Below, piece by piece: positions 391-22,730 of a DNA stretch of 22,730 nucleotides (within the stretch, counting starts at the first letter, position 1; each line of letters opens with the position of its first letter). The notes beneath the pieces were generated by a model. The model was given only the letters and a program-made list of their open reading frames with translations. It searched no databases and was not told where the DNA came from. A program made the translations under genes and the position numbers. The DNA is from an uncultured Nitrososphaerota archaeon (GTDB lineage: Archaea; Korarchaeota; Korarchaeia; Korarchaeales; Korarchaeaceae): NCBI GenBank assembly GCA_964618805.1, contig CAZUBM010000006.1:1-22730 (forward strand), in the 5' to 3' direction.

Positions 391-2603
391 CTTTCAATCT
401 CCTTCTTCAGGAGTTCAGGATTGCTTCCAGGACGGAATAAAGGAAGGGATCTTGGACGAGGCTAATCTTTCAATCTCCTTCTTCAGGAGTTCAGGATTGC
501 TTCCACGATGAACGCCACAGCTTACTGGAATAACGGAACGGCTTTCAATCTCCTTCTTCAGGAGTTCAGGATTGCTTCGGAAGTTACCTGCGGGCATAAC
601 TGTAACTAAGTACACCTTTCAATCTCCTTCTTCAGGAGTTCAGGATTGCTTCAGGGAAAGCCTATGAGATATGTTATGGTATTCTATAACTTTCAATCTC
701 CTTCTTCAGGAGTTCAGGATTGCTTCGGAGAAATGTGACCAAAGCTTTTCTCAAAGTTCTATCAACTTTCAATCTCCTTCTTCAGGAGTTCAGGATTGCT
801 TCCGGTCAGAAATTCTTCATACACCGCGCAGTACCCGACTTCTTTCAATCTCCTTCTTCAGGAGTTCAGGATTGCTTCGGAGAAATGTGACCAAAGCTTT
901 TCTCAAAGTTCTATCAACTTTCAATCTCCTTCTTCAGGAGTTCAGGATTGCTTCCACAGAGGAAAGTGCGGAAAAGTTCCTTAACCTTTCTACTTTCAAT
1001 CTCCTTCTTCAGGAGTTCAGGATTGCTTCAGAAGGAACATCCTTATCTTATAATCATAAGGTGAATAACTTTCAATCTCCTTCTTCAGGAGTTCAGGATT
1101 GCTTCTTGACTTTGACTTTGACTGACTGCACCTGACTTGGTTACTTTCAATCTCCTTCTTCAGGAGTTCAGGATTGCTTCTATGTAACCATTCGATTAAA
1201 GAAAGGGGAAGAGTTACTTTCAATCTCCTTCTTCAGGAGTTCAGGATTGCTTCCCCAGCAAATTTTGGGGGTGATGTAATGGATAAGTTATCTCTTTCAA
1301 TCTCCTTCTTCAGGAGTTCAGGATTGCTTCGCAGTCAGAACCGATAAGGCTTTATGGCTTTATTGGAACTTTCAATCTCCTTCTTCAGGAGTTCAGGATT
1401 GCTTCCGGGAAGAGATTTTTTATACACCGCGCAGTACCTGACTTCTTTCAATCTCCTTCTTCAGGAGTTCAGGATTGCTTCCCGCTATTATCCTTACCTC
1501 GCCTTCTGCTTCGTTTAGTACTTTCAATCTCCTTCTTCAGGAGTTCAGGATTGCTTCTTAGACAAGAGGAAGCTTAAGGGTAGAATCTCTAAGATAACTT
1601 TCAATCTCCTTCTTCAGGAGTTCAGGATTGCTTCATAAAAGCAGATGGGTATGGAAGTGAAGTTGGAAAGATTCTTTCAATCTCCTTCTTCAGGAGTTCA
1701 GGATTGCTTCATTTTATCTGGCATGCAAGGCGTCCCATTGCTCAAATAACTTTCAATCTCCTTCTTCAGGAGTTCAGGATTGCTTCACTTCTGTGCTTAA
1801 GCGATTGGGATTTAAGAAAGGTCTTTCAATCTCCTTCTTCAGGAGTTCAGGATTGCTTCATCGAGAAGACGAAACGGAAATTGGAAATTTTGAACAACTT
1901 TCAATCTCCTTCTTCAGGAGTTCAGGATTGCTTCTCTGCAATCTTTGCCATTCTCAATACTGGAGTAAGAACCTTTCAATCTCCTTCTTCAGGAGTTCAG
2001 GATTGCTTCATCCAAAGACAAACGCTCTTCTCCTCGACGCCAGATAACTTTCAATCTCCTTCTTCAGGAGTTCAGGATTGCTTCAGGATCACCATTTACA
2101 ATCACACCATTGTAGGGCTTTCAATCTCCTTCTTCAGGAGTTCAGGATTGCTTCTTCCCGAAGAAAAGTTCCCGTGGCAATCCCATTATACACTTTCAAT
2201 CTCCTTCTTCAGGAGTTCAGGATTGCTTCACAGCTAAGAAGAAGGATCAAAGACTACAGAGACTACTTTCAATCTCCTTCTTCAGGAGTTCAGGATTGCT
2301 TCTTGCTTTTTCCCTTCAACGCTGAAAATCAAAGTCAAAGTCCTTTCAATCTCCTTCTTCAGGAGTTCAGGATTGCTTCGGATGAGACAGCCTCCTCCTC
2401 CATCACCTCCAGAAGAACTTTCAATCTCCTTCTTCAGGAGTTCAGGATTGCTTCTTCAGGAAGAGAGATTCAGGAAAGCTTTAAAACTCTTCTTTCAATC
2501 TCCTTCTTCAGGAGTTCAGGATTGCTTCACGATGGAAAAGATGTTAGGAACCTTCCACTAGAAGAACTTTCAATCTCCTTCTTCAGGAGTTCAGGATTGC
2601 TTC
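391..2603 (-). CRISPR. CRISPR array 1: 30 identical 37-nt repeats, 29 spacers of 33-40 nt
   Basis: Repeat on + strand CTTTCAATCTCCTTCTTCAGGAGTTCAGGATTGCTTC; transcribed sense GAAGCAATCCTGAACTCCTGAAGAAGGAGATTGAAAG, ending in the ATTGAAAG handle and preceded by a CTCCT/AGGAG stem. AT-rich leader on the right, degenerate repeats on the left. Confidence 0.99.
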
Positions 2604-6758: not shown

Positions 6759-7529
6759 TTGAAAACCTCTGTTATAGCCCCTCTTGGCTTGAGTCCCCCT
6801 GTGGTAACTGAATTTATCCAATATCTTGATCTAGCTGAATCATCTCTTCCAGATTACCTGTTCTTGATGACTACAAATGACAAAGAGGTAATGGAGGGAG
6901 CTGAGCTCATTAAGACCGCCATGTCCCTTAAGTATAGAAAGTGCAGGGTTAACACGATCAGCTTGCCATTTCCCGACCTAGATAGACAGGAAAGGGTATG
7001 GGAGTTTACAAGGCTAGCTGGAAAGCTCCTGGTGGATCAGAGATTAAAATACAATGTGAGAAGGGTTCACGTTCTTATCTCTGGTGGAAGGAAGATAATG
7101 GGGATCCAGCTAGCCATGCTATGCCAGATATTCCCAACTAGCGGAGTTTACCACGTTGTAGCTAGAGATGTGAGGGTAGCTAGCGAAAGGCTCGAAGCGA
7201 TAAGGGGGTTGATATCGGAGCTGGCCAAGGACTCTGACAAGGAGGACTTCTACAGGGAACACTCTGAGGAGTTTGATCCTGTGATGTGGCCCCCTATGTC
7301 TGAGTACTCAGTGGTGAAGCTACCCATCCTCCCTTATCCGCAGGAGGTGCTTGAGAGATTGGTAAGGGTTCTTTCCTCCCCTAGAACTAGAAGAAAGGAG
7401 GCCGCGGTTCCTGAGGAGCTCTTGGTGATGTTGTGGGAGGGGGGACTACTTCAGGTGGTCGAGGGATGGATCATACCGACCGAGATAGGAAGGGAGCTTG
7501 GTGAGGCATTGGGGAGCGTGTTAGGATGA
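6759..7529 (+). CDS. csx14: CARF protein, Csx14/Cas_NE0113-like (possible ring nuclease) with C-terminal wHTH-like tail
   Basis: IAPLGLSPPVVTE, HVLISGGRKIM, VYHV, LPILP; first gene of the cmr operon, overlaps the cas10 start (ATGA). Confidence 0.75.
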   Translation: MKTSVIAPLGLSPPVVTEFIQYLDLAESSLPDYLFLMTTNDKEVMEGAELIKTAMSLKYRKCRVNTISLPFPDLDRQERVWEFTRLAGKLLVDQRLKYNVRRVHVLISGGRKIMGIQLAMLCQIFPTSGVYHVVARDVRVASERLEAIRGLISELAKDSDKEDFYREHSEEFDPVMWPPMSEYSVVKLPILPYPQEVLERLVRVLSSPRTRRKEAAVPEELLVMLWEGGLLQVVEGWIIPTEIGRELGEALGSVLG

Positions 7530-10500
7530 GTGAAAGGGTGAAAGAACTAGGCACGAAAGAGTGGCTACTCAAATTAGCTGCTTTACTCCACGACCCTCCT
7601 GATAAAGTTGCTCTTACTCCAGGCCACGGGAAACGCGCTGCTGGTTATTTACCCAACTACTTTGCAGAATGGGCGAAGGAGAGAGGAGTAGATATAAAGG
7701 AACTTATACGCAAGCATCATGCTGATGAGCATGAGGTTCCTGAGGAAGTTAGAAGCCAGCTTAAAAGGCTTAAGCTAGCAGATTGGTTTTCGAGCGCCAG
7801 CGAACGCATAGCCTTAGATCTCGCCTCTGAAGTACTAGGTTTAAGCAGGATGGATGTAGGTTATATAGAGCTTGTGCACCCTTTCTCTGGCCTTAAATCA
7901 TGTCTGGGTAAGCTTAATGCTGAGGAGTTAAGGAAGCAGCTAAGGACTGGTAAACTGCCATTAGTGAGCAATGTACTTGATGTGCTCAGGCAGACGACTT
8001 GTAGGCCTTGGCAGGGTATTCTGAGGGGATTGGGGGATTCCGGAGCCAAGTTGTTATATCTGCTCTTCTGGAGACTGCTTGAATCGAAGTGGCGAGAGCT
8101 AGTGAAGGGCCGTACTGATCCCCGCGCTGCTTCCCTTCCTGCGGATAGCCGTGTCCCGACGCACTCAATCTGGGATCATGTTGAGGCAACTAGCGCCCTT
8201 ATACCCTGCATTGAAGCTAAGGGTTCTGAACTGGTTCTTAGGGCCTCCCTTCTCTCCATGGACCTAGGCGGGGTCCAGCTTTTTATATCGGCTGCTAGAA
8301 AAACTAGTGATCTCTGGGCTGGGAGCTGGATCTCCTCAGTTCTCTCCTGGTCAGCCATCAAGGAGGGTCTGTCAATACTTGGTCCAGATGCAGTCATTTA
8401 TCCGTATATTAAGGGGTTCCCCTTTGTCGACCTCTGGATAGCTAGTGAGCTCGCCCAATTGTTAATGGATAGAAGGATCCTCTCAGAGAGGGATGCCGAG
8501 GAGTTCAGCAGGAAGCTTATAGAGGAGCTTTGGAAGCTTGATTGGGGATCCATAGAACGGGGGAAGCGCTTGCTTTATCTTCCACTAGTTCCAAATAGTG
8601 CTCTTATATTAGCTCCAAATCATTTATGCAAGACCCTTGAGAAATGCATGAGAGAGGGCTTAGAGAACTGCTGGAAGCAGATATGTGAAAGTGCTCGGGA
8701 ACGCATTCGTAATCTCTTGATTGAGAGGATTCCAAAGAGCAGTATAGAAGAGGGATGGGAGGAGAGGTGGAGTAGGCAGGTCGAGAGACCGCCTCTATGG
8801 CCTATGAGAATAGTATATACTCCATTTCCGGAGAAAGGAGAGGATGTAGAAGAGTTCTTAACTGAGAACTGCAGAGATCTACCTAAAGAGCTTGTTAATC
8901 CGCTCCTTAGGCTGGTTAAGAGGCTTAGGAAGGTAAAGCCAACCATAGTCTATGGTGCGGTTTACGCGCTTAATTCGGTGAAGCTCTCTGCTTACATTCC
9001 ATCATTTAATATCAGCGTTGAGCCATCACCTCGCGAGGAAGGCGGGGAAATAACTGAGAGATGCTCCCTGTGCGGCATAAGGAACCCCCTCTTCCTCAAA
9101 AAGGAGGTTTGGAGGGCCCTTAAGGATGCGAGGCCCGGGTTAATAGAGTGGGATGAGAGGCTCGATTCAGGCGAGTACCTTTGCGCTCCCTGCCTAATAA
9201 AGCGACTCCTTGGATCGGATAGTGTGTTCTTCAAAGAGATCATCAGGGCTGTTATTGGCCTTCCTGAGGGGCTTTCCGAGGGATTAGCCGAAGAGAGACT
9301 TGAAGTCCGCTTCCCATCAACTTCAGATTTTGCTACAGCTACCTTTAAGGCATCCCTATGTGAAGCTATTTTCTGGGCCATAGAAAGGAGAGAGGAAGAG
9401 GGAGCGCTTAGAAAGCTCTTAAATGAAGCTAAGAGGCTAAATGAGGAACTCTCAAGGTTAAGGCAGAGGATTGGCATAACATCCTCCCGTCAGCCTCCCG
9501 CTATTGAGGCTCGACTATCTTGGCTACGCCAAATTAGGGCCAAGATAGAAGGCTCTACTGATATTCAGGGCAAAGCTTCCGAGATCTCTGAGGGTCTTAT
9601 GAGCATTGAAGAATTGCTCAGAATACCAGGCGAATTCCTAATGGAAGAGACATGGCTCCGATTAAGAGAACGCTTCGAAGGGATACATGATAAGCTGGAA
9701 GAGGCGCATAAGAAGCTAAGAGAATTTCTAAAATACGCTGAAAGTTTAATTGAAGAGTGGTTCAGCGCTTTAGAGGAGGATGGAGAGCTTCCTCTTTACA
9801 TAGGGGAGTGCGTAAATGATCTTAATGAAGTCCCCGGCCCCCTTATGCCTTACGCATGGCGGAAGAATCCAGGGAGCTTCTTCGCCCTTCTGAAGAGCGA
9901 TGGGGATGATATGGGACGCTGGATCTCAGGCGAGTTCTTACCAAGCTATTTTGATTCGCTGCACCCACAGATCAGGGAGCAGATTCGGAGCAAAGGGGAA
10001 GCCAAGGGTCTACTGCAAGATAGGCGAGCTATGAGTCCCGCATCTCACATGGCATTTAGCAGGGCACTTATGAGCTTTGCGGCACGGATAGTCCCTCGAG
10101 TAGTTGAAGAGATTGGCTTCGGATCCGTGGTATACTCAGGTGGAGATGACTTAATAGCGCTGCTTGCGCCTGAGCTAGCCCTTGAAGTAGCTCAGCGTCT
10201 AGCTGAGGAGTTTTCCCGTGAGTTCTATGCTGTACCTGGGTTGATTATACAAGGGCTCGGATACAGGGTCTCATGTTCAACAGGTCTAATCATCACTCAC
10301 TACATGTATCACCTAGGTAGGGCGGTGGAGATTGCTGTTGAGGCCATGGAGAAGGCGAAGGATGTTAAGGGCAAAGGAGCTATCTACGCTGAGCTCCTAG
10401 GCAGGGCTGGGCCCATAGTTAAGCTAGAGTGCGGTGTTCACTGGACGTATCCATGGGATAAGAAGAAGCTTGCCGAGCAGGTTAAGCTACATCAATACGG

Positions 10501-10984
10501 TATGGCCCGGTGGTGGAAGGGGCTTAGCCTCTCCCGGAATCCAAGTGATCCACTTACCACAATATTAGTGGGTGCTGGAGAGCTTCGATCTCAATCTTCC
10601 TTAAGGAGCCCGATCATTGAGGCTCAGGCCATTGCTTCAATCGTGAATGGACTCGCCCAGCTTGAGAAAAAGAACATCAGGGTGGCTAGGCGCCTTATCC
10701 ACATATTAAACGCACCTGAGCTACGGAGCGCACTAGCGGCAGGGGGACCCATAATTCCAGCTCTAATCAGGAGGGAGGTAGATAGGCATGTGGAAGGACC
10801 GCCTCAATCTTCTGCCTTTGAGCAGGTAGTGAAGAGCGTGTTACACCGCTCCTTCACTAGTTGGTATCAGACTCTAGGGCTTGGAGAAGTAATCAACGAT
10901 TTCATGGGACTGGTTCATATAGCGAATCGATGCCTATCTGAGTCGCTCCTAAGAGCTAAGCCAAGAGGGGATGAGATTGGATAA
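7526..10984 (+). CDS. cas10: Cas10/Cmr2, type III-B large subunit with HD nuclease and intact cyclase palm
   Basis: LLHDPPDK and ADWFSSASER (HD domain); PADSRVPTHSIWDH; VQLFISAARKTSDLWAGS; CSLC...CAPC Zn site; KSDGDDMG; YSGGDD. Confidence 0.97.
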   Translation: MSERVKELGTKEWLLKLAALLHDPPDKVALTPGHGKRAAGYLPNYFAEWAKERGVDIKELIRKHHADEHEVPEEVRSQLKRLKLADWFSSASERIALDLASEVLGLSRMDVGYIELVHPFSGLKSCLGKLNAEELRKQLRTGKLPLVSNVLDVLRQTTCRPWQGILRGLGDSGAKLLYLLFWRLLESKWRELVKGRTDPRAASLPADSRVPTHSIWDHVEATSALIPCIEAKGSELVLRASLLSMDLGGVQLFISAARKTSDLWAGSWISSVLSWSAIKEGLSILGPDAVIYPYIKGFPFVDLWIASELAQLLMDRRILSERDAEEFSRKLIEELWKLDWGSIERGKRLLYLPLVPNSALILAPNHLCKTLEKCMREGLENCWKQICESARERIRNLLIERIPKSSIEEGWEERWSRQVERPPLWPMRIVYTPFPEKGEDVEEFLTENCRDLPKELVNPLLRLVKRLRKVKPTIVYGAVYALNSVKLSAYIPSFNISVEPSPREEGGEITERCSLCGIRNPLFLKKEVWRALKDARPGLIEWDERLDSGEYLCAPCLIKRLLGSDSVFFKEIIRAVIGLPEGLSEGLAEERLEVRFPSTSDFATATFKASLCEAIFWAIERREEEGALRKLLNEAKRLNEELSRLRQRIGITSSRQPPAIEARLSWLRQIRAKIEGSTDIQGKASEISEGLMSIEELLRIPGEFLMEETWLRLRERFEGIHDKLEEAHKKLREFLKYAESLIEEWFSALEEDGELPLYIGECVNDLNEVPGPLMPYAWRKNPGSFFALLKSDGDDMGRWISGEFLPSYFDSLHPQIREQIRSKGEAKGLLQDRRAMSPASHMAFSRALMSFAARIVPRVVEEIGFGSVVYSGGDDLIALLAPELALEVAQRLAEEFSREFYAVPGLIIQGLGYRVSCSTGLIITHYMYHLGRAVEIAVEAMEKAKDVKGKGAIYAELLGRAGPIVKLECGVHWTYPWDKKKLAEQVKLHQYGMARWWKGLSLSRNPSDPLTTILVGAGELRSQSSLRSPIIEAQAIASIVNGLAQLEKKNIRVARRLIHILNAPELRSALAAGGPIIPALIRREVDRHVEGPPQSSAFEQVVKSVLHRSFTSWYQTLGLGEVINDFMGLVHIANRCLSESLLRAKPRGDEIG

Positions 10985-12164
10985 TGCTGGTTATCGTTTT
11001 ATGAGGTTTAGGCTCTCACCTATGGATGTACTCAGGTTTAGGAAGCCCAAACCTTTCCGCGTAGGCGGTTATGCCCAGACTGAGCTCATGCCGCCTCCAA
11101 GCACCATAGCTGGTGCCTTTCTAACTGAGCTCTATTACCATGGCCTCATCCCTGATACTGATAGCTTCGAGGAGTTTGTTAAAAGGTTGGAGGATGAAAA
11201 GGCGTTCTTCCACGGCCCATTCTATAGCTGGAAGGGAGACCTCTTAGTTCCTCTACCGTACGATATTCGCAGGTGTAAGTATTGCAAGAAGCTCTTCCTA
11301 GTCCCTTGGAGGGGAGACCAATACGTTGAAGGGGTTAGCTATCCATTATCTACCCCCTGGCCTCCCTGTCCAAGCTGCGGCAGGGCCTCAAAGCCAGCGA
11401 TGAATGGCTTAATTTCATCCTCCGTATTGAAGCTGAGGGCTCAGCAAGTAACTGAGCTTAGGGGTGTAGATGTAGCCAAAATCAAGGAGGATGCTGAGGG
11501 CATAGTCAGAATCCAGCTGAGGCCTGGGATAGCGCTGAAGGATGAAGCTAAGGTAGTTAGGCCAGGCTATTTTTACATGACTGAATGGCTCGAGCTTATC
11601 GATGTTGATATCGTGGAATATGCGAGCCTCCCTGAGCATTACCTCAATATCTTAAAGAATCTCTCCCTGCTAAGTGTTGGAGGCGATAGGAGGCCTGTAG
11701 TCGTTAACTCTGAAGAGCTTAGGCTTGATGAGATTTGTAAGGAGCTTACTGGCTATTCTATTGAAGAACTATCTAAAGAAATTGTTAGGAGTAAGTGTTT
11801 CGATCTCCTTATACTGACTCCAGCTATATTTGCTAGACAGGGGAAAATCCCCTACAGAGAAAGGACGAGCTGGCTTCCAGACTGGCTTGTTAACGGGAGG
11901 GGAGAGCTGAAGGGCCTTAAGATGAGGTTAATTGGCGTGGGGCTGCACAAGCCCCTCCCAGTCAGCGGCTGGGATTTAAGGTTGAATGCCCCTAAGAATA
12001 TGTATGCTGCTGTCTCCCCGGGATCCGTATTCCGTCTTGAAATCTTGGGGGATGTAAACCTCCAAGATGTAATGCGGTTCTTGGGGGAGGTTCTTGTTAA
12101 AGGTGTGGGGAGGTGGAGGGCTGTTGGATATGGAACAGCAGTCGTGCTCCCAGTCAGTCAGTAA
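10971..12164 (+). CDS. cmr3: Cmr3 (Cas5 group)
   Basis: PMDVLRFR..KPF, PPPSTIAGA, GGDRR, LTPAIF, SGWD....PK..YAAV.PGSVF, GYG C-terminus. Confidence 0.93.
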   Translation: MRLDNAGYRFMRFRLSPMDVLRFRKPKPFRVGGYAQTELMPPPSTIAGAFLTELYYHGLIPDTDSFEEFVKRLEDEKAFFHGPFYSWKGDLLVPLPYDIRRCKYCKKLFLVPWRGDQYVEGVSYPLSTPWPPCPSCGRASKPAMNGLISSSVLKLRAQQVTELRGVDVAKIKEDAEGIVRIQLRPGIALKDEAKVVRPGYFYMTEWLELIDVDIVEYASLPEHYLNILKNLSLLSVGGDRRPVVVNSEELRLDEICKELTGYSIEELSKEIVRSKCFDLLILTPAIFARQGKIPYRERTSWLPDWLVNGRGELKGLKMRLIGVGLHKPLPVSGWDLRLNAPKNMYAAVSPGSVFRLEILGDVNLQDVMRFLGEVLVKGVGRWRAVGYGTAVVLPVSQ

Positions 12165-13137
12165 TACCCATTTATTGATACTATTCTGCGAGACCCCTAC
12201 GCATTTCGGAGCTGGCAGGGGGGTGGCACCAGCTGATCTCATAATTCAAAGGAGCAGGAGGACAGGCCTCCCGATAGGACAGGCCCCGAGTATACGTGGT
12301 ATGTTTAGATCAGCGCTTAAGCTAGCAGGAGAGAAACAGTTAGCTAGCAAGCTCTTCGGGGCTGAGCCAGAGGAGGTCGGAGGCAGGAGCGGCATTCTGA
12401 CCTTTCTAGACGCTAAACTCCTATTATTCCCAGTAAACTCAATTAGGGGCATGTGGTGCTGGGCTACATCGCCCTCAACCCTTAAAGAATTTGATCACAC
12501 ATTAGCGGCCCTAGGGCTTAGCGGATGTGATCAATTTAAGGAACTTCACGGATTGCTTACTAGACTTCCCGAGGTAGAGAATGCAAAGGCATTCGTCCCT
12601 GTTGAGAATGAGGTCGTGGTAGATGATAAGGTCATCTTATTAGCTGGCGAGGTTGAGCTAGAGGCCTTAGAGTTTAAAGAGCAAGGGAAATGCTCTGAGG
12701 AGCCAACTAGGGATCTTATTGGAGAGCTCGCGTCTAAACTCGGAGAGTTGCTCCCCGACGGGCCCCCGTACGATTATATAAGGAGGAAGCTCGCTAAGAG
12801 ATTTGTCTTAATTGGGGACAACACTTTTGAATTCCTCACGAGGAGGGGAGCGGAGCTACGCACTAGGGTTAGCTTAGACTATGAAAAAAAGATCGTGAAG
12901 GAGGGAGGGCTTTGGACTGAGGAGTATCTACCGGAGATGAGTGTAATGTACTCAGGAGTTATCTTGAGAAGCCGTAAGGCTGAACCCCAGGTAGAACTAG
13001 GCTATCTAAAGAGATTCCTTGAGTTCATCATAGATAAAAAGAGATTCTTTGCAGCGGGCAAGGAGAGCGTGGGCGGGGGCCTTGTCTATGTTAAACCATT
13101 ACCAGGTGTCTCAAATGAGCGTGAAGGTAAAGGATAG
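12094..13137 (+). CDS. cmr4: Cmr4 (Cas7 group backbone RNase), copy A; ATG at 12130 likely
   Basis: ETPTHFGAG....DLIIQR..TGLP, DAKLLLFPV.S, GGLWTEEYLP, GKESVGGG; catalytic-position His and Asp present. Confidence 0.93.
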   Translation: MLKVWGGGGLLDMEQQSCSQSVSNTHLLILFCETPTHFGAGRGVAPADLIIQRSRRTGLPIGQAPSIRGMFRSALKLAGEKQLASKLFGAEPEEVGGRSGILTFLDAKLLLFPVNSIRGMWCWATSPSTLKEFDHTLAALGLSGCDQFKELHGLLTRLPEVENAKAFVPVENEVVVDDKVILLAGEVELEALEFKEQGKCSEEPTRDLIGELASKLGELLPDGPPYDYIRRKLAKRFVLIGDNTFEFLTRRGAELRTRVSLDYEKKIVKEGGLWTEEYLPEMSVMYSGVILRSRKAEPQVELGYLKRFLEFIIDKKRFFAAGKESVGGGLVYVKPLPGVSNEREGKG

Positions 13138-13588
13138 GATAGCTCAGATGTATGAGCACGCATCGCACTACGTAAGAATTGCTAGTAGGTTAGGCCCTGA
13201 GGGACAAAAGAAGCTGAAGTCTTATGCCGCTAGCTGCTCCACTTCCATAGTAGCCGAAGGCTTGCTTGCAACGCTTTCCTTTGAGGCGTCAAAAGCGAAG
13301 GAGAAAGCCATCAGAGAAGTCATAAAAGCTCGCAATAGCGAGGCTATAAGTACGCTTGAAGAAATCAAGGAAGAAGAACTAGCTCATGCTCTAGTTTATG
13401 ATTGTGTTGCCAGCTGGATCCTGCCTTTAGTAGGGGTGAAGGAGGAGCTTTACCAAGAAAAACCATTAGAGATTTTGCTTCGCCTAGCTGAAAGATATAA
13501 TGACTTAGCTTTGAAGTCTCGTACGCTTCATGAAGCTTGTCTACTCCTCGAGGCCTTAAAGAGGCTAGCGGAGGGTGAGTTTGGCTGA
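13049..13588 (+). CDS. cmr5: Cmr5 (Cas11 small subunit), copy A; ATG at 13115 likely
   Basis: KSYA....SI..EGLLATLSF..SK and C-terminal EA..LLEALKRLAEG are typical of Cmr5; follows cmr4. Confidence 0.85.
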   Translation: MQRARRAWAGALSMLNHYQVSQMSVKVKDRIAQMYEHASHYVRIASRLGPEGQKKLKSYAASCSTSIVAEGLLATLSFEASKAKEKAIREVIKARNSEAISTLEEIKEEELAHALVYDCVASWILPLVGVKEELYQEKPLEILLRLAERYNDLALKSRTLHEACLLLEALKRLAEGEFG

Positions 13589-14622
13589 TGAACTGGTCTT
13601 CCATCGAGAAGAGGCTCTTATTCCTGATGCTAGTTACAGACTTGCACTCGGGGATGGGTAAGGCTGTCTCAGGGGCTGTAGATAACCCGATTCAGAGAGG
13701 AAGCCCTGCTTACATCCCGCTAATTCGAGGTAGTTCTATTAAGGGCGCCCTAAGCAATCGCTACTTTAAGCGGGTGGGTAAGAGAAGCAGAGATGAGAAG
13801 GAGATATGGGCCCCTATTTTTGGGGATGTAGATGAGTCAGCTGCTTCATTTACTGTGTTAGACGCCCATCCTCTCCTAATCCCTGTGCCCTCCCTCAAAG
13901 GAGGCTATGCTTACGTGACCTCACCAGCCCTTCTTAATCGCTTTGCCCTAATTGCCGATATGACGGGGAAAGATATGTTAGTTAATGAAGCCCTTGAAGC
14001 TTTGGCACCAGGTGGACGAGAGCCGTGTGGAAGGGAATGCTACGTTGAGGAGGAAAGTAAAGTGCTCTTGAGTGTTGAAGCCCTTCAGAATGAAGAATGT
14101 GTGGTTATAGAGCCTCTTCTCGTTCTTAAGCCCGCTAGGAGGGCTTATGAGATATCTAAGCTCACTAGGACACTTATCAGGAATAGTCAAGCGTTAAATA
14201 TAGCTCTCGAAGTGGAAGGGCACGTAGTGCTCATTAGTGATGATATGTTAAGCCTTGTGTTGGAACATGTCATCACCGCGACTCCGCGCATACGCTTAAA
14301 GTATAAGGAGAAAGTAGTGGAGACTGGGCCCTGGTGGGAGGAGACATTACCTAAGGGCACATTACTATACACAGCCTTTATTGCAAGGAACTCCAGAATC
14401 CCCCTCAAGCGAGAGGTACTTAAAGGACTGAAGAAGTTTATCTCCTTTAGAGAGCTTGGCTTAGAGATAGATGGGGACAAGGCTGAGATTCAACTTAAAC
14501 CGTCTCACATCTTTCAGATAGCGTTAGGACAAAAGTCCCCCCTTTACCTCTTCTTGGGGGCTGACAAGAGCTCAGGTAAGGGCTTGATTAAGGTGATCTG
14601 GTATGGGAGAGGGATCAGTTAG
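13588..14622 (+). CDS. cmr4: Cmr4 paralog, copy B
   Basis: TDLHSGMG.....VDNPIQR, GSSIKGAL, DAHPLLIPVPSLKG.YAYVTSP..L.RF, RIRL....K.V..GPWWEETLP.GT, LGADKSSGKG. Confidence 0.88.
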   Translation: MNWSSIEKRLLFLMLVTDLHSGMGKAVSGAVDNPIQRGSPAYIPLIRGSSIKGALSNRYFKRVGKRSRDEKEIWAPIFGDVDESAASFTVLDAHPLLIPVPSLKGGYAYVTSPALLNRFALIADMTGKDMLVNEALEALAPGGREPCGRECYVEEESKVLLSVEALQNEECVVIEPLLVLKPARRAYEISKLTRTLIRNSQALNIALEVEGHVVLISDDMLSLVLEHVITATPRIRLKYKEKVVETGPWWEETLPKGTLLYTAFIARNSRIPLKREVLKGLKKFISFRELGLEIDGDKAEIQLKPSHIFQIALGQKSPLYLFLGADKSSGKGLIKVIWYGRGIS

Positions 14623-14938
14623 TGAGGCGTTAAGCAGAACTGCCCTGTTTCTCAAAGCGATGGGTTTGAGAGGGGAGGAGATTCCTGATAAAGCGCGTAA
14701 GCTCCTTATCTGGATGAGAGTAGGGGCTCCTTATCTCATAATGTGGCTCCTTATCATGGAAGAGGAGGTAAAGGAGTTGCTTCAACTGCTTAAGCTAGAG
14801 CTTACATGGGAAAACCTAATTTGCTTTGCGGAGAGGGAGGATCCTTCCCAAATTCGTTTATCCGAATTATGCTGGAGCAGACAGTTAGATTTTTTGCGTA
14901 AGCTCTCAGAGACAATTGGAGAAGGGGGGATAAAATGA
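14603..14938 (+). CDS. Small helical protein, probable divergent second Cmr5-like subunit
   Basis: 111 aa, RBS-like AGGTGA before the ATG, overlaps both neighbours, occupies the cmr5 position after the second cmr4. The C-terminal LDFLRKLSE resembles the Cmr5 ending (LEALKRLAE in copy A). Confidence 0.55.
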   Translation: MGEGSVSEALSRTALFLKAMGLRGEEIPDKARKLLIWMRVGAPYLIMWLLIMEEEVKELLQLLKLELTWENLICFAEREDPSQIRLSELCWSRQLDFLRKLSETIGEGGIK

Positions 14939-16179
14939 GCAATTCTGTCCTTAACAAGCCAGAGAGGCTCTTTGAAGTGGATTTTGAGGTTTTTATGCCA
15001 ATTGCTACAAGTGGATATGATACTAACACACGGCATACCGTAGACAAACTTACGTGGTATGAGTCAATTAGAGCTCCAAGTATCCGAGGAGTATGGAGGT
15101 GGTGGCTTAGAACGCTATTTGCAGGAGTTGCATGGGATAGAGGAAAGAACGAAGTGGAATCAGCTCTTAAAGCAACTGAAGTGCTAGGCTACGTTGGCAA
15201 GAAGAAATCATCACGATCCTACCTTATGATGATCCTAACTAGGCCAAGTTCCCCGCCAGAACACGCTAGCCGAATTAAAATAGGAAAAGTTCCTAGGGTC
15301 AGTCTTCTCCGGAGAGATGTTCATTTTCATCCACAAGACGCCTCCTGTAAACTGAAGGTATACTCGTTGGTTCCTGTCAAGCCTAAAGGCCTTAGAGACG
15401 TAGCGCTAGCTTCTCTTGTCTTGAGCGCATCGTTGGGAGGCTTTGGAAAGATTGCTAGACGGGGGTTTGGGAAGCTTAAACCTCTTAAAATAGAGAAATC
15501 CCCTGAGACTCTACGTAGGATTATGAATCTTTGGCAAGAGTTATTTAATGAGGATGAAGAGAGAGTTAAAGAGGCGTTAAAAGAGCTCTGCGAATCTATC
15601 TATGAGTTGGCAGATAAAACTTTTAATGAGTTTGAGGCAGCTTTATCATCCCAGGGAAATCTTAGCCAGCTTCCTCGTATACCTGCGTTCTCTAAGAGAA
15701 AAATAAAAATTGAAGAAATTGAAATTCCTTACTGTCAGGTTCTATTGACCAGTACTCGTTCTCTCTCTAAAAGACTAGAGAGCGTTATAGAGAAGGATAG
15801 CTCCCTTAAGATAGATCGAGGGATTAACTACTATAGAATGGGAGGTTTTCTAGATCGTAACAAGCCCCTTCATCTCATTGGTATGTTATGCCGCATATTA
15901 GCCATTAAATTAGGTCCAGATCGATGGATTTTAGGAGGACCGCGGAAATGGAGAGATCAAAACGATAGAACAAAACAAAGAGAGATAAAACGAAGGGCTA
16001 GCCCAGTCTGGTTTACTATTCTAGGTGAGCATGGGAGTTATCATGTTGTTGCCACAGTATTCCTGAGCAAGGATTGGCCTCATGGATACCAAGTCTCTAG
16101 AGAAACTTTATCTCCTTTCGGAAACCTCTTAGATCTGCTTTTTGAATATAACTTTCGTGTGGTGTGGCCTAATGGATGA
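14935..16179 (+). CDS. cmr1: Cmr1 (Cas7 group RAMP)
   Basis: IRAPSIRGVWRWWLR, LGGFGKIARRGFG, LGGPR, RRASPV. Confidence 0.92.
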   Translation: MSNSVLNKPERLFEVDFEVFMPIATSGYDTNTRHTVDKLTWYESIRAPSIRGVWRWWLRTLFAGVAWDRGKNEVESALKATEVLGYVGKKKSSRSYLMMILTRPSSPPEHASRIKIGKVPRVSLLRRDVHFHPQDASCKLKVYSLVPVKPKGLRDVALASLVLSASLGGFGKIARRGFGKLKPLKIEKSPETLRRIMNLWQELFNEDEERVKEALKELCESIYELADKTFNEFEAALSSQGNLSQLPRIPAFSKRKIKIEEIEIPYCQVLLTSTRSLSKRLESVIEKDSSLKIDRGINYYRMGGFLDRNKPLHLIGMLCRILAIKLGPDRWILGGPRKWRDQNDRTKQREIKRRASPVWFTILGEHGSYHVVATVFLSKDWPHGYQVSRETLSPFGNLLDLLFEYNFRVVWPNG

Positions 16180-17410
16180 GGACTCACTTCATATGAATAT
16201 TCTGCTACTTCTGGGGTTGTCAAAACATAGAAGAATTGAGAGGATTAATGAGACGATTAATACTCTTTTAAAGAACGTGAAAGACGCGTTAAGGCAAAGA
16301 AGGGTTCAGAGAGAAATAATTGTAAAAATTATAGATAAATTAAATAGAGTATTACATGAATTAGAAGAATTAGAAAGAAGTGGAACGCTTGTTTCCCTTG
16401 CTATTAAAGTTCTTAAGCAAGAGCTTAAGTTAATAGGGTGTATAAAACAAGCTAAAGATAAGCTCTCTCAGCCTTACATAGGTAGAGATATACTTAAAGA
16501 TGTAAGGAATTTAGTTGAGAAGCTAGACTTAGGTATAGAATCACTTCGTCGCTTGCTACTTGAGAAGCTATCTCGAGAGACGAATATAACGACTAGCAAT
16601 AAATATGTGCAGCACCTTAAGGAGGCCTTAAAAAGTACTAAAGGGGATCAGAGCTTACAGCTAAGAAGTATTAAGGCGCGCTTAATTACCCCAGGAGTTC
16701 TTGGTACTCGCACATTCCCTTGGGCTATAGGATTCCATATCGGTCTCCATTGGGACCCTCTTATTCAGTCTCCATACTATCCCGCTACCGCTATAAGGGG
16801 AGCCATTCACTCCCTCCTCTTTTATCCTGATCTCATAAAGAAAGTAGTTGAAGACGCTCTTGAAACCGAAGTTAGCCATCTTGAAGCTTTATGCTATACT
16901 TATGAAGTGCTTGGTGTTGCAGAGTGGGATAAGGATCTGCCTAATGAGGTAATAGATAGATGGAAAGGATGCATTAGGGCTGAAGCAGCCGATCTCCTTA
17001 AACTATTAAAGAAGAAACTTGGAGAGAAATTCATAGGAAAAGTAATGTTCTTTGATGCATATCCGGTAGAAGTTAGTGAAGAGGGCCTCCTCATAATACC
17101 AGAAGTTATAAGCCCCCATTATCGTGAAACAGAAGTAAGACGCCTTCTTGAGACTGATCAAAAGGTAATAATGAAAGAGCTCCATAAGAAGCTCCCTGAG
17201 ATACAAGAGATAACTGAACCTAGAGCGTTGCTCTTTCCTGCCATAGCACCTGGCGTAACATTCACTTTTTACATAGCTTCAGAAAATGAGAAGCTACTCA
17301 GGGTCGCTACAGCTCTCCTCAAATGTGCCCTTACAACCGTCGGTATTGGGGCGAAGACCACATCAGGCTACAATCTCTTTGAAATAACTGAGGATGAGGC
17401 AAATACCTAA
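16142..17410 (+). CDS. cmr6: Cmr6 (Cas7 group RAMP) with long helical N-terminus; ATG at 16172 likely
   Basis: WDP....PYYPATAIRG, GKVMFFDAYP, EVISPHY, P....FPAI..G..F.F, GIGAKTTSGY. Confidence 0.92.
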   Translation: MNITFVWCGLMDEDSLHMNILLLLGLSKHRRIERINETINTLLKNVKDALRQRRVQREIIVKIIDKLNRVLHELEELERSGTLVSLAIKVLKQELKLIGCIKQAKDKLSQPYIGRDILKDVRNLVEKLDLGIESLRRLLLEKLSRETNITTSNKYVQHLKEALKSTKGDQSLQLRSIKARLITPGVLGTRTFPWAIGFHIGLHWDPLIQSPYYPATAIRGAIHSLLFYPDLIKKVVEDALETEVSHLEALCYTYEVLGVAEWDKDLPNEVIDRWKGCIRAEAADLLKLLKKKLGEKFIGKVMFFDAYPVEVSEEGLLIIPEVISPHYRETEVRRLLETDQKVIMKELHKKLPEIQEITEPRALLFPAIAPGVTFTFYIASENEKLLRVATALLKCALTTVGIGAKTTSGYNLFEITEDEANT

Positions 17411-17920: not shown

Positions 17921-18601
17921 CTAGCGCCTAGCAGCCCTTTCAGCTTCTACCAGGATGGATTTAAGGAGCTTGCGTGTTCTGTCCGACATCCCTCTGACTA
18001 TCTTATCGAGGTGCGGGTCCTCAGAGCTTCCCCTATCGAGCGCTAAAATCACCTGATCTATCTTCCAAGGAATGGCGAACACTGGAAACTCTATCAAACG
18101 GCGAGATTCAGCGGGAGGATGAAGCACTAATCTCTTCTCCTCCTCAGGAAGCTCGGCTAATCTCTTAATCATTCCCTTGGATTCTAGCTCAGGATCTACA
18201 AGGAGATGAAGAACCGATTTTACGCCGTAGAGCTGACCAAGCAATACCATGGCTGCTGACATGGTCTTCCTACCTCCTGCAAGGCTCAAATATACCTCGT
18301 TTCCGCTAGCTATGATCTCCTTATGCATAATGGCAGCTACTTTCCTCATGAACTCTGCATTATCCTCCTCATCGTATATGTCGTCGCTCTTGATGCAGGC
18401 TTCCTCGGTTCTTAGCTCGACGTTAGGATAATGTTTGTGGAATTCCTCCCTGATTAAAGGAATGCATCCGTCCCATATCAGTTGGTCGCTAGTTGTTGCC
18501 AAGTAAACTCGTCCGGGCTTCTTTCCTTGCTCTATTAGGGCATCCATTGTCCCGGTTATTACGCCTGGAGCACGGCCTAATGAGGCTATGAGAACTAACA
18601 T
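17921..18601 (-). CDS. CARF protein, Cas_NE0113/Csx14-like (possible ring nuclease)
   Basis: From ATG 18601: MLVLIASLGRAPGVIT, LATTSD, DDI, LSLAGGRKTMSA, HLLV, LIEFP. The ORF track extends it to 18646. Confidence 0.78.
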   Translation of the reverse strand: MLVLIASLGRAPGVITGTMDALIEQGKKPGRVYLATTSDQLIWDGCIPLIREEFHKHYPNVELRTEEACIKSDDIYDEEDNAEFMRKVAAIMHKEIIASGNEVYLSLAGGRKTMSAAMVLLGQLYGVKSVLHLLVDPELESKGMIKRLAELPEEEKRLVLHPPAESRRLIEFPVFAIPWKIDQVILALDRGSSEDPHLDKIVRGMSDRTRKLLKSILVEAERAARR

Positions 18602-18865
18602 CCTGATCGAACTGGTAAAATGAATTGAAAAAATAAAAGACTTCATTTGATATCACGTTCCATCTGTTTGATTAATTATCAGGCAGGAGACTCTAGATCT
18701 AGCTGATTAAGGGATTAACGTGCTGCAGGTGTACAAAACGCAGGAGCTAGCTCATGAAGCAACTCTGAAGCCTGAAGAAGGAGACTGAGGGTCTGAAACC
18801 CAATTTTGGGACGCTTCATGTCTCCCTTAAGGTTCTTTTTTAGCTTCAGATAGTCAATACATTAG

Positions 18866-19351
18866 ATGCCCATAGCTTACCTGGCTACGGTAGGCTCCAG
18901 CGAAAAGCCTGCTTTCAATTCGATAAAGGCTGTTCTACAGAAGTATAAACCAGAGGTTCGTAGAATACTTCTTCTATGCTCCCAGCGCGACAAGAGGAGG
19001 GGGATACCTGGAACAGAAGAGGTAGGAGAACGCATTAAGGCTAAGATCTCTGGACTGCCCTGCACATCTGGAGTTGAGGTTAAGATCCTGAGAGTAAGCC
19101 AAGAATCGATAGAAGAGGTGTACAATAAGGTTAAGATGGCGGCTGAGGAAGCAAAGAGGGACGGGTTGGAGCTTTGGGTTGATATAACTGGTGGCAGGAA
19201 GACCATGTCCAGCGGTGCACTTCTAGCTGCTACAGAGCTCGGTCTCAAGTGCTTCTACTTCTGGCTTTATGATCCAGCAAGAAACAGGGATAAGGAACTG
19301 GAGGAGATGCAGGAATTCATAGATTATGAAGTTGTTAGGGTGAGGGCTTAA
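18866..19351 (+). CDS. Stand-alone CARF domain protein (161 aa)
   Basis: YLATVGSSEKP, ILLLCS, WVDITGGRKTMSSG, C-terminal strand CFYF; no room for a fused effector. Confidence 0.82.
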   Translation: MPIAYLATVGSSEKPAFNSIKAVLQKYKPEVRRILLLCSQRDKRRGIPGTEEVGERIKAKISGLPCTSGVEVKILRVSQESIEEVYNKVKMAAEEAKRDGLELWVDITGGRKTMSSGALLAATELGLKCFYFWLYDPARNRDKELEEMQEFIDYEVVRVRA

Positions 19352-19352
19352 G

Positions 19353-20453
19353 GTGCGGCATTGGAAGTTCCTTAAAATTAGGGAAGAAAAGCTGGCAGGA
19401 ATAATAGGCCGCTTAGGCGGTAAAATTGAGCTTCATTGCCTTCTAGCAAAGGGTAATAGGCTTGTGGGCTATCTCATACTCGACAAGCAAGAGGCGACGA
19501 TAATTCCGAAGATTAAGGAGAGGGGAATCATAGCCTCTCTCATAAAGGACGAGCAAGTTAAAGAAGCTCATCTAATTCAAGCCATTGAAAGGGCTTGCAT
19601 AGAGCACGTAAATCCTCTTGACAAACTAATTGAGCTTGCTGAGTCTTTATCCGAGTTTAACGCTAAAATATGCCTGGCTGTGGATACTAGCTTCCTTATG
19701 AGGGGCCTTCTTGAGTATCTAAAAGAGAAGTTAGAGGAAAAGTTAAAGGAAAAGAAGTTAGAGGAAAAGGGCTTTAGCTTGAGTTTATTCATCCCTTCTA
19801 TGGTTCTTCAGGAGCTCTTCACGGACTTCGATGACTTGATAAGGAGCGAGGAGCTGAGCGCGATAAGCGGCTTCCCAAAGTTTAGATCGAGATTGGCCAG
19901 AAGGGTACTCTCCTACATGATGGGGACCAGAGGATCAAGAGCTCTTAAAATTCAGTTTGGATCTGGGCATATTCTCCTCCCAACTGGGGCGAAGGGGATG
20001 AAGTACCTGCCAGATCTTGAGATCCTAAGGCAGATTAGGGAGTTCTCTAAAGAAAGCAGCGACTTGGTGATAACGGCAACCTGCGACCTTGGAATGGCAA
20101 TGATTGCTGAGGGGCCTTGTTGCTACATAAAGCCTGAGAAAGTTTCCGCATCCTTCAAAAAGGAAGGACAAGAGATAGTGCTGCCAAGAAAGAGGATCCA
20201 GCAAACCTTAGCGGAGCTTATAGTTGCGTTCGGACTCCTGCTCCTTAAGCCTGAGCAGGGTGAACCTATGCTGCTCTCTTACAGCTGGAAGGGAATAGGA
20301 AGATCTGATTATGCCAGGAAGTTAATATGCCTTGGAGTAAGAGAGGTAAATGAGCTGATTAACTGGATCTCGCTTGATAAGGAGAGAGGCGAGGGATTTC
20401 TTCCATCGGAGAAGGTTCCATGGAGAAATTTGGTTGAGAATAGGGGTCTATAA
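19353..20453 (+). CDS. PIN-domain ribonuclease-like protein with N- and C-terminal extensions
   Basis: PIN acidic tetrad: LAVDTSFL, IPSMVLQEL, PDLEIL, TATCDLGM; starts 1 nt after the CARF stop. Confidence 0.75.
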   Translation: MRHWKFLKIREEKLAGIIGRLGGKIELHCLLAKGNRLVGYLILDKQEATIIPKIKERGIIASLIKDEQVKEAHLIQAIERACIEHVNPLDKLIELAESLSEFNAKICLAVDTSFLMRGLLEYLKEKLEEKLKEKKLEEKGFSLSLFIPSMVLQELFTDFDDLIRSEELSAISGFPKFRSRLARRVLSYMMGTRGSRALKIQFGSGHILLPTGAKGMKYLPDLEILRQIREFSKESSDLVITATCDLGMAMIAEGPCCYIKPEKVSASFKKEGQEIVLPRKRIQQTLAELIVAFGLLLLKPEQGEPMLLSYSWKGIGRSDYARKLICLGVREVNELINWISLDKERGEGFLPSEKVPWRNLVENRGL

Positions 20454-21155: not shown

Positions 21156-21974
21156 TTGCCTTGCAGGATCTCCGTCTCGCTTGAGCCATCCTCTGAGCTC
21201 GTTTACGAGCTTCCAACAAGCGGTAGAATAGTTCAACACCTCTTCTTCTCCGCAATAAAGGCTTACGATAAGGATCTAGCTTCGGAAATTCACTCAATGA
21301 GGATAAAGCCTTACTCGGTAACAAGGCTCACCACGGCCAGGGAGAACGTTAAGGGGAAGCTGGCTAGAGTTGGACTCGGAAGCTACGTAAGGGCTACCTT
21401 CAAGCTTTTGAGGGATGAACTCAGGGAGCCTCTAATCGAGGGGCTCCAGAAAGCTGAGCTTAAGGTCGCTGGGGTCGAGCTAAAGGTGCTCGACGTAAAG
21501 GCAACTAGGCCTGAGGGATACGAGGAGATGCTCTTCAGGGGAGAGCCCTACAGGGAGTTCACGGTTGAGATATTAACCCCTGCTGTCTTCGATGAGGAGT
21601 CTCCCTTTCCAGAGGACAGCAGACCGATGTTCAGAAGGCCTCTCCTCTGTTGGAACACGTTTTGCCCCGAGGAGCTTAGACTTCCAGAGAGCGCAGTTCA
21701 GAGGGCATCAAAGCTCAAACTCCTCAAGTGCCAGCTTGTGAGGAGGGTCGTGCCCGTACCAATCAAGAGGTTAAGGGTCCCTATAATCTGCTTTTCAGGC
21801 ACCCTCGCCTACAGGATGGGAGGGCTTGACTTCATGTCAGGCCTAATGCTGACCGCCCTTCTGAAGCTTGCCAACTACAGCGGAATAGGATCAAGGACGA
21901 CCATGGGATTTGGAAGCGTTTTCATCAAACCTTACGTTAGCTGCAAAGAAAAGGGCAGAAGTCGCTTAAAATGA
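21156..21974 (+). CDS. cas6: CRISPR RNA-processing endoribonuclease Cas6
   Basis: LA..IH....KPYSVT, LTPAVF, F.G...Y and C-terminal G-loop ANYSGIGSRTTMGFG. Confidence 0.93.
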   Translation: MPCRISVSLEPSSELVYELPTSGRIVQHLFFSAIKAYDKDLASEIHSMRIKPYSVTRLTTARENVKGKLARVGLGSYVRATFKLLRDELREPLIEGLQKAELKVAGVELKVLDVKATRPEGYEEMLFRGEPYREFTVEILTPAVFDEESPFPEDSRPMFRRPLLCWNTFCPEELRLPESAVQRASKLKLLKCQLVRRVVPVPIKRLRVPIICFSGTLAYRMGGLDFMSGLMLTALLKLANYSGIGSRTTMGFGSVFIKPYVSCKEKGRSRLK

Positions 21975-22617: not shown

Positions 22618-22730
22618 GAAGCAATCCTGAACTCCTGAAGAAGGAGATTGAGAGTACTTGTTCTCCATCGCCATAGACAATTACTGGTAATGAAGCAATC
22701 CTGAACTCCTGAAGAAGGAGATTGAGAGAC
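22618..22730 (+). CRISPR. CRISPR array 2 (start only: two repeats, one full spacer)
   Basis: GAAGCAATCCTGAACTCCTGAAGAAGGAGATTGAGAG at 22618-22654 and 22692-22728; 37-nt spacer at 22655-22691. Confidence 0.95.

Follow-up and report, generated by a model that had tools for sequence, protein, structure and literature searches.

In type III CRISPR-Cas effector complexes, the Cas7 backbone measures the CRISPR RNA (crRNA) and cuts the target, and target cutting turns off both the DNase of Cas10 and its cyclic-oligoadenylate signalling. To our knowledge, the well-studied III-B complexes all polymerise one Cmr4. The present analysis concerns a III-B operon that carries two diverged cmr4 genes (cmr4A and cmr4B) and a small orphan open reading frame (ORF), here called X. 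It lies in a CRISPR-Cas island of an uncultured Nitrososphaerota archaeon (GTDB family Korarchaeaceae; assembly GCA_964618805.1, contig CAZUBM010000006.1, positions 1 to 22,730), and this whole 22.7-kb stretch is the window referred to below. The canonical III-B systems of Pyrococcus furiosus, Archaeoglobus fulgidus, Thermus thermophilus and Sulfolobus islandicus (Cmr-alpha) consist of the same gene families as the window operon, where all of them score above the curated cut-offs, and the window has CRISPR arrays, cas6 and CARF genes nearby as well. Unlike these systems, however, it has two Cmr4 genes, and an orphan gene of 111 aa stands between cmr4B and cmr1. A backbone built of different Cas7 proteins has been described in the III-D complex of Sulfolobus solfataricus (SsoCsm), where four genes encode the six Cas7-like subunits, each of them essential and none able to stand in for another (bioRxiv 10.1101/2022.11.14.516469). 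A backbone of different Cas7 products at fixed positions is also the mechanism that we propose, with more doubt, for the window operon.

All genes of the operon are on the plus strand in the order cas10/cmr2-cmr3-cmr4A-cmr5A-cmr4B-X-cmr1-cmr6. The single large subunit gene, cas10/cmr2 (7526..10984, 1152 aa), matched TIGR02577 with 224.8 bits (cut-off 79.4) and the Pfam families Cmr2_N and Cas10 palm2. It is of the Cmr2 type, the Csm1 model scoring 53.4 bits against a cut-off of 170, and its translation shows an HD motif at the N-terminus as well as a GGDD motif. It is followed by cmr3 (10971..12164), a Cas5-family gene (TIGR01888, 116.5 bits, cut-off 100.4; Pfam Cas_Cmr3), the product of which also contains a CxxC...CxxC segment resembling a zinc ribbon. 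The first Cas7 backbone and slicer paralog, cmr4A (12130..13137), is open from TTG 12094, and the likelier, putative start used here is ATG 12130. The next gene, cmr5A, encodes the Cas11 small subunit; it is open from TTG 13049 and more likely begins at ATG 13115 (13115..13588). That this gene between the two cmr4 copies encodes a genuine Cmr5 is shown by its matches (TIGR01881 with 36.5 bits against a cut-off of 27.9; Pfam Cas_Cmr5; eight PADLOC Cmr5 models), and its product could be aligned with nine Cmr5s from the bacterial loci L001-L012 of the survey described below, relative to which it has an insertion of about 27 residues. The second, more divergent paralog, cmr4B, spans 13588..14622, and X (14603..14938, 111 aa, predicted to be helical) occupies the slot where a cmr5 would be expected after it. 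Two Cas7-family cap genes complete the operon, cmr1 (14935..16179; TIGR01894, 38.5 bits, cut-off 28.65) and cmr6 (16142..17410; TIGR01898, 72.9 bits, cut-off 51.1, matched over residues 198-414 only). Ahead of this match, the cmr6 ORF has an N-terminal extension of about 190 aa (16142-16720; the start codon is putative), for which PADLOC gave no credible match (best E 0.007).

In the window, cas10, cmr3, cmr1 and cmr6 are each present in one copy. The stop of cmr5A and the start of cmr4B have one base in common (TGATG), X starts 20 nt before cmr4B ends, with a GGTGAT motif ahead of it, and the stop of X and the start of cmr1 overlap by 4 nt (ATGA); these are the junctions of a translationally coupled operon. 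The coordinates and junctions agree with the gene order and the overlapping or abutting spacing, from cmr3 to cmr6, that had been proposed when the stretch was first read from its letters alone (the original prediction). None of the seven antisense ORFs of 68-97 aa within or overlapping these coordinates matched a Pfam family. An arrangement of this kind lies well outside what chance could give. By every gene-family test the effector module is type III-B. The canonical III-B layout has one Cmr4 gene and a homomeric backbone, and we found two genes of the TIGR02580 family; this is a variant composition and no ground to exclude the locus from III-B.

Both Cmr4 proteins matched TIGR02580 (NCBIfam, cut-off 87) from end to end, Cmr4A with 174.8 bits (model positions 2-282 of 283) and Cmr4B with 162.5 bits (positions 2-283 of 283). 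The next-best family for Cmr4B was Csm3 with 24.2 bits (cut-off 90), and in PADLOC the four best models were Cmr4 for each of the two. Between them, 82 of 295 aligned residues were identical (28%, E 2e-18), which bears out the claim that one III-B operon has two Cmr4 genes, both of full length and deeply diverged from each other. Both were nearest by sequence to the Cmr4 of a canonical system, that of P. furiosus: it was the best match of Cmr4A in the PDB (E 3e-33), and Cmr4B matched it with E 1e-24. The motifs ADLIIQR of Cmr4A and VDNPIQR of Cmr4B both aligned on VDQPIQR of P. furiosus in the HMMER alignments. Accordingly placed, D36 and D94 of Cmr4A (numbered from ATG 12130) are the equivalents of P. 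furiosus D26 and D86, as are D32 (in VDNPIQR) and D92 (in LDA, GDA in P. furiosus) of Cmr4B. Both proteins also have the His (THFGAG in Cmr4A and DLHSGMG in Cmr4B) and the W.EE.LP motif (WTEEYLP and WWEETLP), so the residues named in the original prediction are all there, together with the second Asp. In an alignment of 18 Cmr4 sequences, 12 columns were invariant, both Asp included, and all 12 were kept in Cmr4A and Cmr4B. In the mutant data given in PMC4333402 for P. furiosus Cmr4, D26A abolished target cleavage and D86A reduced it; mutation of H15, E227 or E228 had no apparent effect in the same part of that report (PMC4333402). Since both paralogs keep the catalytic Asp, we would expect cleavage at every position of a backbone made of them.

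Each paralog has relatives of its own in other public datasets. Orthologs of Cmr4A were P0011 (78% identity) and P0012 (41%), and the ortholog of Cmr4B was P0002 (66%). An AlphaFold2 (AF2) model of Cmr4B from the 18-sequence alignment reached a pLDDT of 74.7 and a pTM of 0.79, and in the fold search the matches listed to rank 25 were all Cmr4 chains of solved Cmr complexes. The best of them was A. fulgidus Cmr4 (9l7d_F, E 3e-19, TM 0.68/0.70), a further likeness to the canonical systems, and the modelled fold of Cmr4B is that of a Cmr4. After the strand that ends in FIARNSR, Cmr4B has an insertion of about 26 residues which, among the 18 aligned sequences, is common to P0002 only; insertions of some kind occur at this site in 4 of the 18. 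The model predicts an ordered strand-helix-strand for the insertion with high confidence.

One explanation of such a second copy is a relic, the locus being what remains of recombination between two III-B operons or of a tandem duplication long ago, with Cmr4B and X redundant or not incorporated and simply tolerated. Cmr4B does depart from the consensus at more of the strongly conserved columns than Cmr4A, matching it at 22 of the 28 most-conserved columns compared with 26 of 28. Every one of these counts was equal in P0002, so that the departures appear to be fixed features of the clade and not random decay; at least one of them, in the FG column, is an apparent alignment shift. When columns were classed by their conservation in 13 other Cmr4s, Cmr4B and P0002 were identical in 71 of 83 conserved columns (86%) versus 124 of 195 variable ones (64%; odds ratio 3.4, Fisher p=1.9e-4). 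The corresponding comparison of Cmr4A with P0011 gave 77 of 84 conserved versus 152 of 197 variable columns (p=0.004). Judged from these alignments, the pattern shows apparent purifying and not relaxed selection on Cmr4B, a copy that does not look to be decaying. Relaxed selection on the second copy, which the original prediction had named in advance as one of the signs that would tell against it, was therefore not seen. The reading frames are intact, the Cmr4B model is ordered and the insertion common to Cmr4B and P0002 is modelled with high confidence, all of which argues against a relic. If the orthologs come from one genome pair, Cmr4B has evolved about 1.8 times faster than Cmr4A (path lengths 0.47 and 0.26).

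The relic explanation finds more in its favour in the phylogeny. As fragments, P0004 (239 aa) and P0021 (232 aa) did not enter the Cmr4 profile, the tree or the alignment, and the tree was also built without the Cmr4 fragment of locus L013. In the resulting maximum-likelihood tree of 30 sequences, Cmr4A grouped with P0011 and P0012 (100/99) and Cmr4B with P0002 (100/100). In the best tree these two clades were not sisters, both stood inside a group of nine rows (98/96), and Cmr4B joined other divergent sequences at 91/88, a placement to be read with a warning of long-branch attraction. One named neighbour in the tree was a Desulfurococcaceae metagenome-assembled genome (MAG). In a tree without the three longest rows, Cmr4B was placed beside P0018 and the A clade with weak support (68/75). 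The stem of Cmr4B is very long, 1.6 to 2.4 substitutions per site, the higher value being that of the tree without the three longest rows. An approximately unbiased (AU) test did not reject A and B as one clade (difference in log-likelihood 5.75, p=0.118). An old duplication followed by fast divergence of Cmr4B and a separate acquisition would both be compatible with these trees. An origin of the two copies in a single duplication, as the word "duplicated" in the original prediction has it, is one of these two possibilities, with copies that are not sisters in the best tree, an AU test at p=0.118 and a placement that shifts between trees.

Base composition points elsewhere. The GC content at third codon positions (GC3) was 0.509 for cmr4A, 0.504 for cmr4B and 0.482 for X, compared with 0.361 for cmr1 and 0.348 for cmr6; every other gene examined in the window had 0.456-0.677. 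Because the GC3 values of cmr4A and cmr4B are equal, neither copy looks recently imported. The sharp drop right after X suggests that the cap genes cmr1 and cmr6 were exchanged or separately acquired. Import of cmr4B-X-cmr1-cmr6 as one block was considered and rejected: cmr4B and X match the upstream genes, and the break falls at cmr1/cmr6. For the relic explanation, this break shows that some exchange of modules happened within the operon; however, it does not fall at cmr4B or X. Weighing these points together with the signs of purifying selection, we regard a relic as quite improbable.

That X is a genuine gene is very probable, because it is coupled to both neighbours and has a full-length homologue. 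Among 1.84 billion cluster representatives, one credible homologue was found, P0022 (109 aa, 61%, E 2.8e-27), and the two align over their full length with two short internal gaps. Conservation of this degree over the full length is a further point against a relic. Two other candidates, P0023 and P0024, were dropped as spurious, being internally repetitive proteins. X had no meaningful match in Pfam (E<=10), NCBIfam (E<=0.01), PADLOC (E<=0.1) or PHROGs, and a profile search of the PDB returned no match at E<=10. The original prediction had taken the repeated unit to be cmr4-cmr5, and this part was not supported: X has no detectable similarity to Cmr5 or to another small subunit. BLASTP of X against Cmr5A gave E 3.1, and hhalign of the two-sequence X family against a 10-sequence Cmr5 alignment, the profile comparison of 14603-14938 that had been proposed with the original prediction, gave a probability of 1.07% over 15 columns. 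X as a demonstrated second Cmr5 was therefore rejected, as the BLASTP, hidden Markov model, profile-profile and PDB searches were all without similarity. The AF2 model of X, from a two-sequence alignment, was all-helical with seven helices and of low confidence (pLDDT 48.8), and a Foldseek search of the PDB with it gave no match at E<=0.001, which is uninformative at this pLDDT. The Atlas models of X and P0022 had a pLDDT of 0.44 and 0.56, respectively. In the ESM Atlas there was no usable feature match for X, and the feature scores of P0022 were all <=0.84, which is chance level; the nearest structure-search clusters of P0022 include generic helical bundles. A prediction of the Cmr4B and X complex gave ipSAE values of 0.01 and 0.00, without controls, and weighs neither for nor against binding.

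It is gene position, and only that, which suggests a hypothetical Cmr5-like role for X. The missing similarity is probably weak evidence against a small-subunit role, because protein S of III-C has diverged likewise, with no similarity to Csm2 or Cmr5 detectable according to the relevant part of the source (PMC3973734), and because small, mutually unrelated ORFs recur between RAMP (repeat-associated mysterious protein) genes in the type III loci that PMC3936711 describes. X might instead lie outside the backbone, as an accessory, a regulator or a passenger of the inhibitor type, and the second Cmr4 would then be the sole novelty; such a role is compatible with a single heteromeric assembly as well as with two alternative ones. 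In keeping with it, X resembles no Cas11 family and is acidic, and type III loci are known, according to Vestergaard, to carry extra proteins peculiar to a lineage. Yet X overlaps both of its neighbours within the block of structural genes, and a tblastn search of phage and plasmid records found no relative of it. The divergence of protein S beyond recognition and the recurrence of unrelated small ORFs, cited above, likewise take force from the argument for an accessory. We therefore consider a place outside the backbone improbable for X, though worth keeping in mind.

Given that cas10, cmr3, cmr1 and cmr6 are single, that the two cmr4 genes are co-translated with them and that both paralogs are under selection, the most economical interpretation is one Cmr complex in which Cmr4A and Cmr4B form a heteromeric Cas7 backbone and X is an extra subunit; we put it forward as a tentative one, at somewhat less than an even chance. 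The locus would then represent one III-B effector operon, from a sparsely sampled lineage, with two non-interchangeable Cmr4 paralogs and a lineage-specific small helical protein. All products of the operon would assemble on one crRNA as a single complex, in which Cmr4A and Cmr4B would have separate places along the stretch from the Cmr3-Cas10 foot to the Cmr1/Cmr6 cap. Each paralog would cut the target RNA at its own site, the sites being spaced by 6 nt, and would help to switch Cas10 off. Differences between the stacking faces of the two paralogs would determine the order of subunits. As an extra subunit, X would in the simplest case be a far-diverged analogue of the small subunit, next to Cmr4B as Cmr5 is next to Cmr4A.

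The stacking faces are where the paralogs may differ in a telling way. In the crystal filament of P. furiosus Cmr4, as given in the section of PMC4333402 on stacking, the contacts are K276, D233 and R95 on one face and D86', R112', R115' and H34' on the opposite face of the neighbour. The position of K276 is G in Cmr4A and P0011 and K in P0012, compared with K in Cmr4B and R in P0002. At R112, all three A-clade sequences have E and both B-clade sequences R. D233 corresponds to M in Cmr4A and G in Cmr4B, and R95 to N and P, respectively; D86 is kept in all. As the paralogs do not have the same residues at the stacking contacts, we infer that A-A, A-B, B-A and B-B interfaces may be chemically non-equivalent, as a fixed subunit order would need.

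The same residues bear on another explanation, in which two alternative complexes share the Cas10-Cmr3 foot and the Cmr1/Cmr6 cap, one with a homomeric Cmr4A/Cmr5A backbone and the other with a homomeric Cmr4B/X backbone. Such a pair could provide redundancy, for instance when an inhibitor binds only one type of backbone, or else two preferences for crRNA or target. Cmr4A and P0011 are without the Lys of the conserved K276-D86' stacking salt bridge, at a position where Lys or Arg is found in P0012, Cmr4B and the majority of other Cmr4s, and this would seem to agree less well with a pure A-A filament. Each paralog alone, however, has every conserved feature of a Cmr4, and the unit of a cmr4 followed by a small gene occurs twice in the layout. 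The composition of the backbone is not rigid either, as Cmr complexes of S. islandicus that have three copies of Cmr4 occur side by side with others that have four, according to the part of PMC9368842 concerned. Against these points, the genes form one coupled operon with no visible way to make one set alone, and X is not recognisable as a small subunit. Two alternative complexes therefore seem doubtful to us, about as much so as an accessory role of X.

Several points weigh against the single heteromeric complex. The interface mapping comes from pairwise alignments to a crystal filament free of RNA. Both paralogs depart from several of the P. furiosus contacts, so the differences between them may be ordinary drift. 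The placement of both paralogs, or of X, in one particle is inferred from gene layout and conservation, and two alternative assemblies would account just as well for the repeat of a cmr4 plus a small gene. No similarity of X to a small subunit was detected, and X is mildly acidic (pI 5.1, P0022 5.6) compared with a pI of 6.2-9.4 in 10 Cmr5s. Only two lineages are known, a conserved synteny is conjectural, and P0011, P0002 and P0022 may even come from different genomes.

If the heteromeric complex does form, a different Cmr4 type at each position could, speculatively, tune the length of the complex and the duration of Cas10 activity. The changes in crRNA length, cleavage pattern or anti-CRISPR resistance that the original prediction named are speculative too. 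Such tuning is plausible because, in the S. islandicus experiments covered by the consulted portion of PMC9368842, loss of cleavage by Cmr4-alpha led to lethal self-targeting, and the substitutions H16A and D83A impaired the loading of the fourth Cmr4. Carried further, the backbone would be obligately heteromeric, with Cmr4A-Cmr5A and Cmr4B-X segments, X would found a new Cas11-like small-subunit family that sequence does not reveal, and segment-specific kinetics of target RNA cleavage would act as a position-dependent timer for the shut-off of Cas10. In this extended form the proposal is on the unlikely side, clearly behind the simpler version of one complex with both paralogs.

The heteromeric principle itself is shared with SsoCsm, and the operon of the window probably works like the III-D backbone without membership of III-D. 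Type III-D has Csm-type components and four or five diverged Csm3-like Cas7 paralogs, and the components here are all Cmr-type. Unlike in SsoCsm, the Cas10 scores as Cmr2 (224.8 bits versus 53.4 for Csm1) and the paralogs as Cmr4 (162.5 versus 24.2 for Csm3). There are two backbone paralogs and not four, and the assembly, shown for SsoCsm, is a proposed one in the window. The Cmr-beta complex of the Sulfolobales offers a different parallel, a III-B complex with a lineage-specific extra subunit, Cmr7. Labels of the type "Cmr4.1" in the Cmr-beta preprint reportedly denote positions of one protein. However, Cmr7 is about 200 aa long and unrelated to X, and Cmr-beta has a single Cmr4 gene. The association of Cmr7 with certain III-B variants is noted in the part of PMC3973734 that deals with it. 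Orphan ORFs named Cmr7/8/9 (Zhang et al., 2014; PMC3936711) are, like X, small, without relatives and located between RAMP genes; by the account in the pertinent passage they belong to human-microbiome bacteria and average 138-194 aa, and they are set beside X by this description only. Protein S of III-C is likewise a small protein without detectable similarity to Cmr5 or Csm2, as stated in the same part of PMC3973734.

What is new here is the presence of two true Cmr4s in a III-B system together with an orphan small gene; a heteromeric backbone as such was known before. In a full-text search of the literature that did not extend to the locus tables of the classification papers, which may well list such loci, we found no description of two cmr4 genes in one III-B operon. 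The wordings "two Cmr4" and "copies of Cmr4" in PMC4333402 and PMC9368842 refer, in the passages where they occur, to copies of one protein. The suggestion of an undescribed III-B architecture thus stands as far as this literature search goes, and it has to be qualified by the S. solfataricus III-D precedent for the heteromeric backbone.

To see how unusual the layout is, genome contigs were scanned with peptide patterns specific to Cmr4B, and 14 of the 71 matched stretches encoded a relative, giving 13 loci. All were bacterial, and their Cmr4s were 24-28% identical, except for one 52-residue piece at 42%. None of the 13 loci had a second strong Cmr4, three of them being shorter than 2.5 kb and silent on neighbours; four had a second match of only 15-24 bits, presumably another RAMP. 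A second Cmr4 was also found in none of the 23 plasmid records matched by Cmr4A, in none of the 22 matched by Cmr4B and in none of the five complete Pyrobaculum III-B modules as described in the relevant part of PMC3396285. The gene order of the window, which the original prediction had suggested looking for elsewhere, did not recur among these loci, records and modules. A layout with two Cmr4s is therefore not the norm; the samples are small and mostly bacterial, so uniqueness does not follow. In one of the 13 loci (L010, positions 3544-4198, a Desulfurellales MAG), a pair resembling the toxin-antitoxin system MntA/HepT separated the cmr4 and cmr5 genes of a III-B operon, scoring just below the curated cut-offs.

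If the heteromeric backbone is true, the operon would offer a simple two-paralog case for how the order of subunits is specified in a Cas7 filament, and the III-D complex of Sulfolobus, with its four paralogs, is less easily taken apart. One could also ask whether cleavage sites near Cas10 differ from those far from it in ending the immune signal. X could add a new family of small subunits or accessory proteins. Because the heteromeric principle is established and the lineage is known from two sequence sets only, the advance would be incremental unless a position-specific function is shown.

The rest of the island contains adaptation, processing and signalling genes. CRISPR array 1 (391..2603, minus strand) is made up of 30 repeats of 37 nt, all identical, and 29 spacers of 33-40 nt, one of which is present twice. 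Read on the minus strand, which is the transcribed one, the repeat has the 3' end ATTGAAAG. An archaeal origin of the locus is suggested by this repeat ending, which is associated with archaea, by the presence of Csa1, by P. furiosus and A. fulgidus proteins as the best solved relatives and by the Desulfurococcaceae neighbour in the Cmr4 tree. Three degenerate, partly palindromic copies of the repeat lie at 171-355 and 690-955, at the presumed trailer end of this array. After array 1 follow csa1-cas1-cas2-cas4 (3021-5910) and a helix-turn-helix gene in divergent orientation. A Csx14-like gene (6759-7529, plus strand) is located directly upstream of cas10/cmr2, and a second gene of the Csx14/Cas_NE0113 type (17921-18646, minus strand) lies on the other side of the cmr operon. 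Both have weak similarity to the Crn1 ring nuclease, and against the HEPN-containing Csx1/Csm6 models their match is confined to the CARF region. A solitary degenerate repeat (18755-18791, 62% match) stands between the ring-nuclease-like gene and a CARF gene. In the region 18866-20453, a CARF-only ORF of 161 aa abuts an ORF of 366 aa in a different frame. In PADLOC, the CARF part of the former aligned with the N-terminal ends of effector models of the CARF-HEPN and CARF-PIN types; the latter has no match in Pfam, NCBIfam, PADLOC or PHROGs and shows PIN-like motifs by eye. Together the two may be a split or two-gene CARF effector. An Rfam search of the window gave no match. The crRNA processing enzyme is encoded by cas6 (21156..21974, plus strand; TIGR01877, 65.2 bits, cut-off 58.65). 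The start of CRISPR array 2 (22618..22728, plus strand), which runs beyond the window, is oriented opposite to array 1 and has the array 1 repeat with one base changed in the 3' tag region, GAGAG versus GAAAG in array 1.

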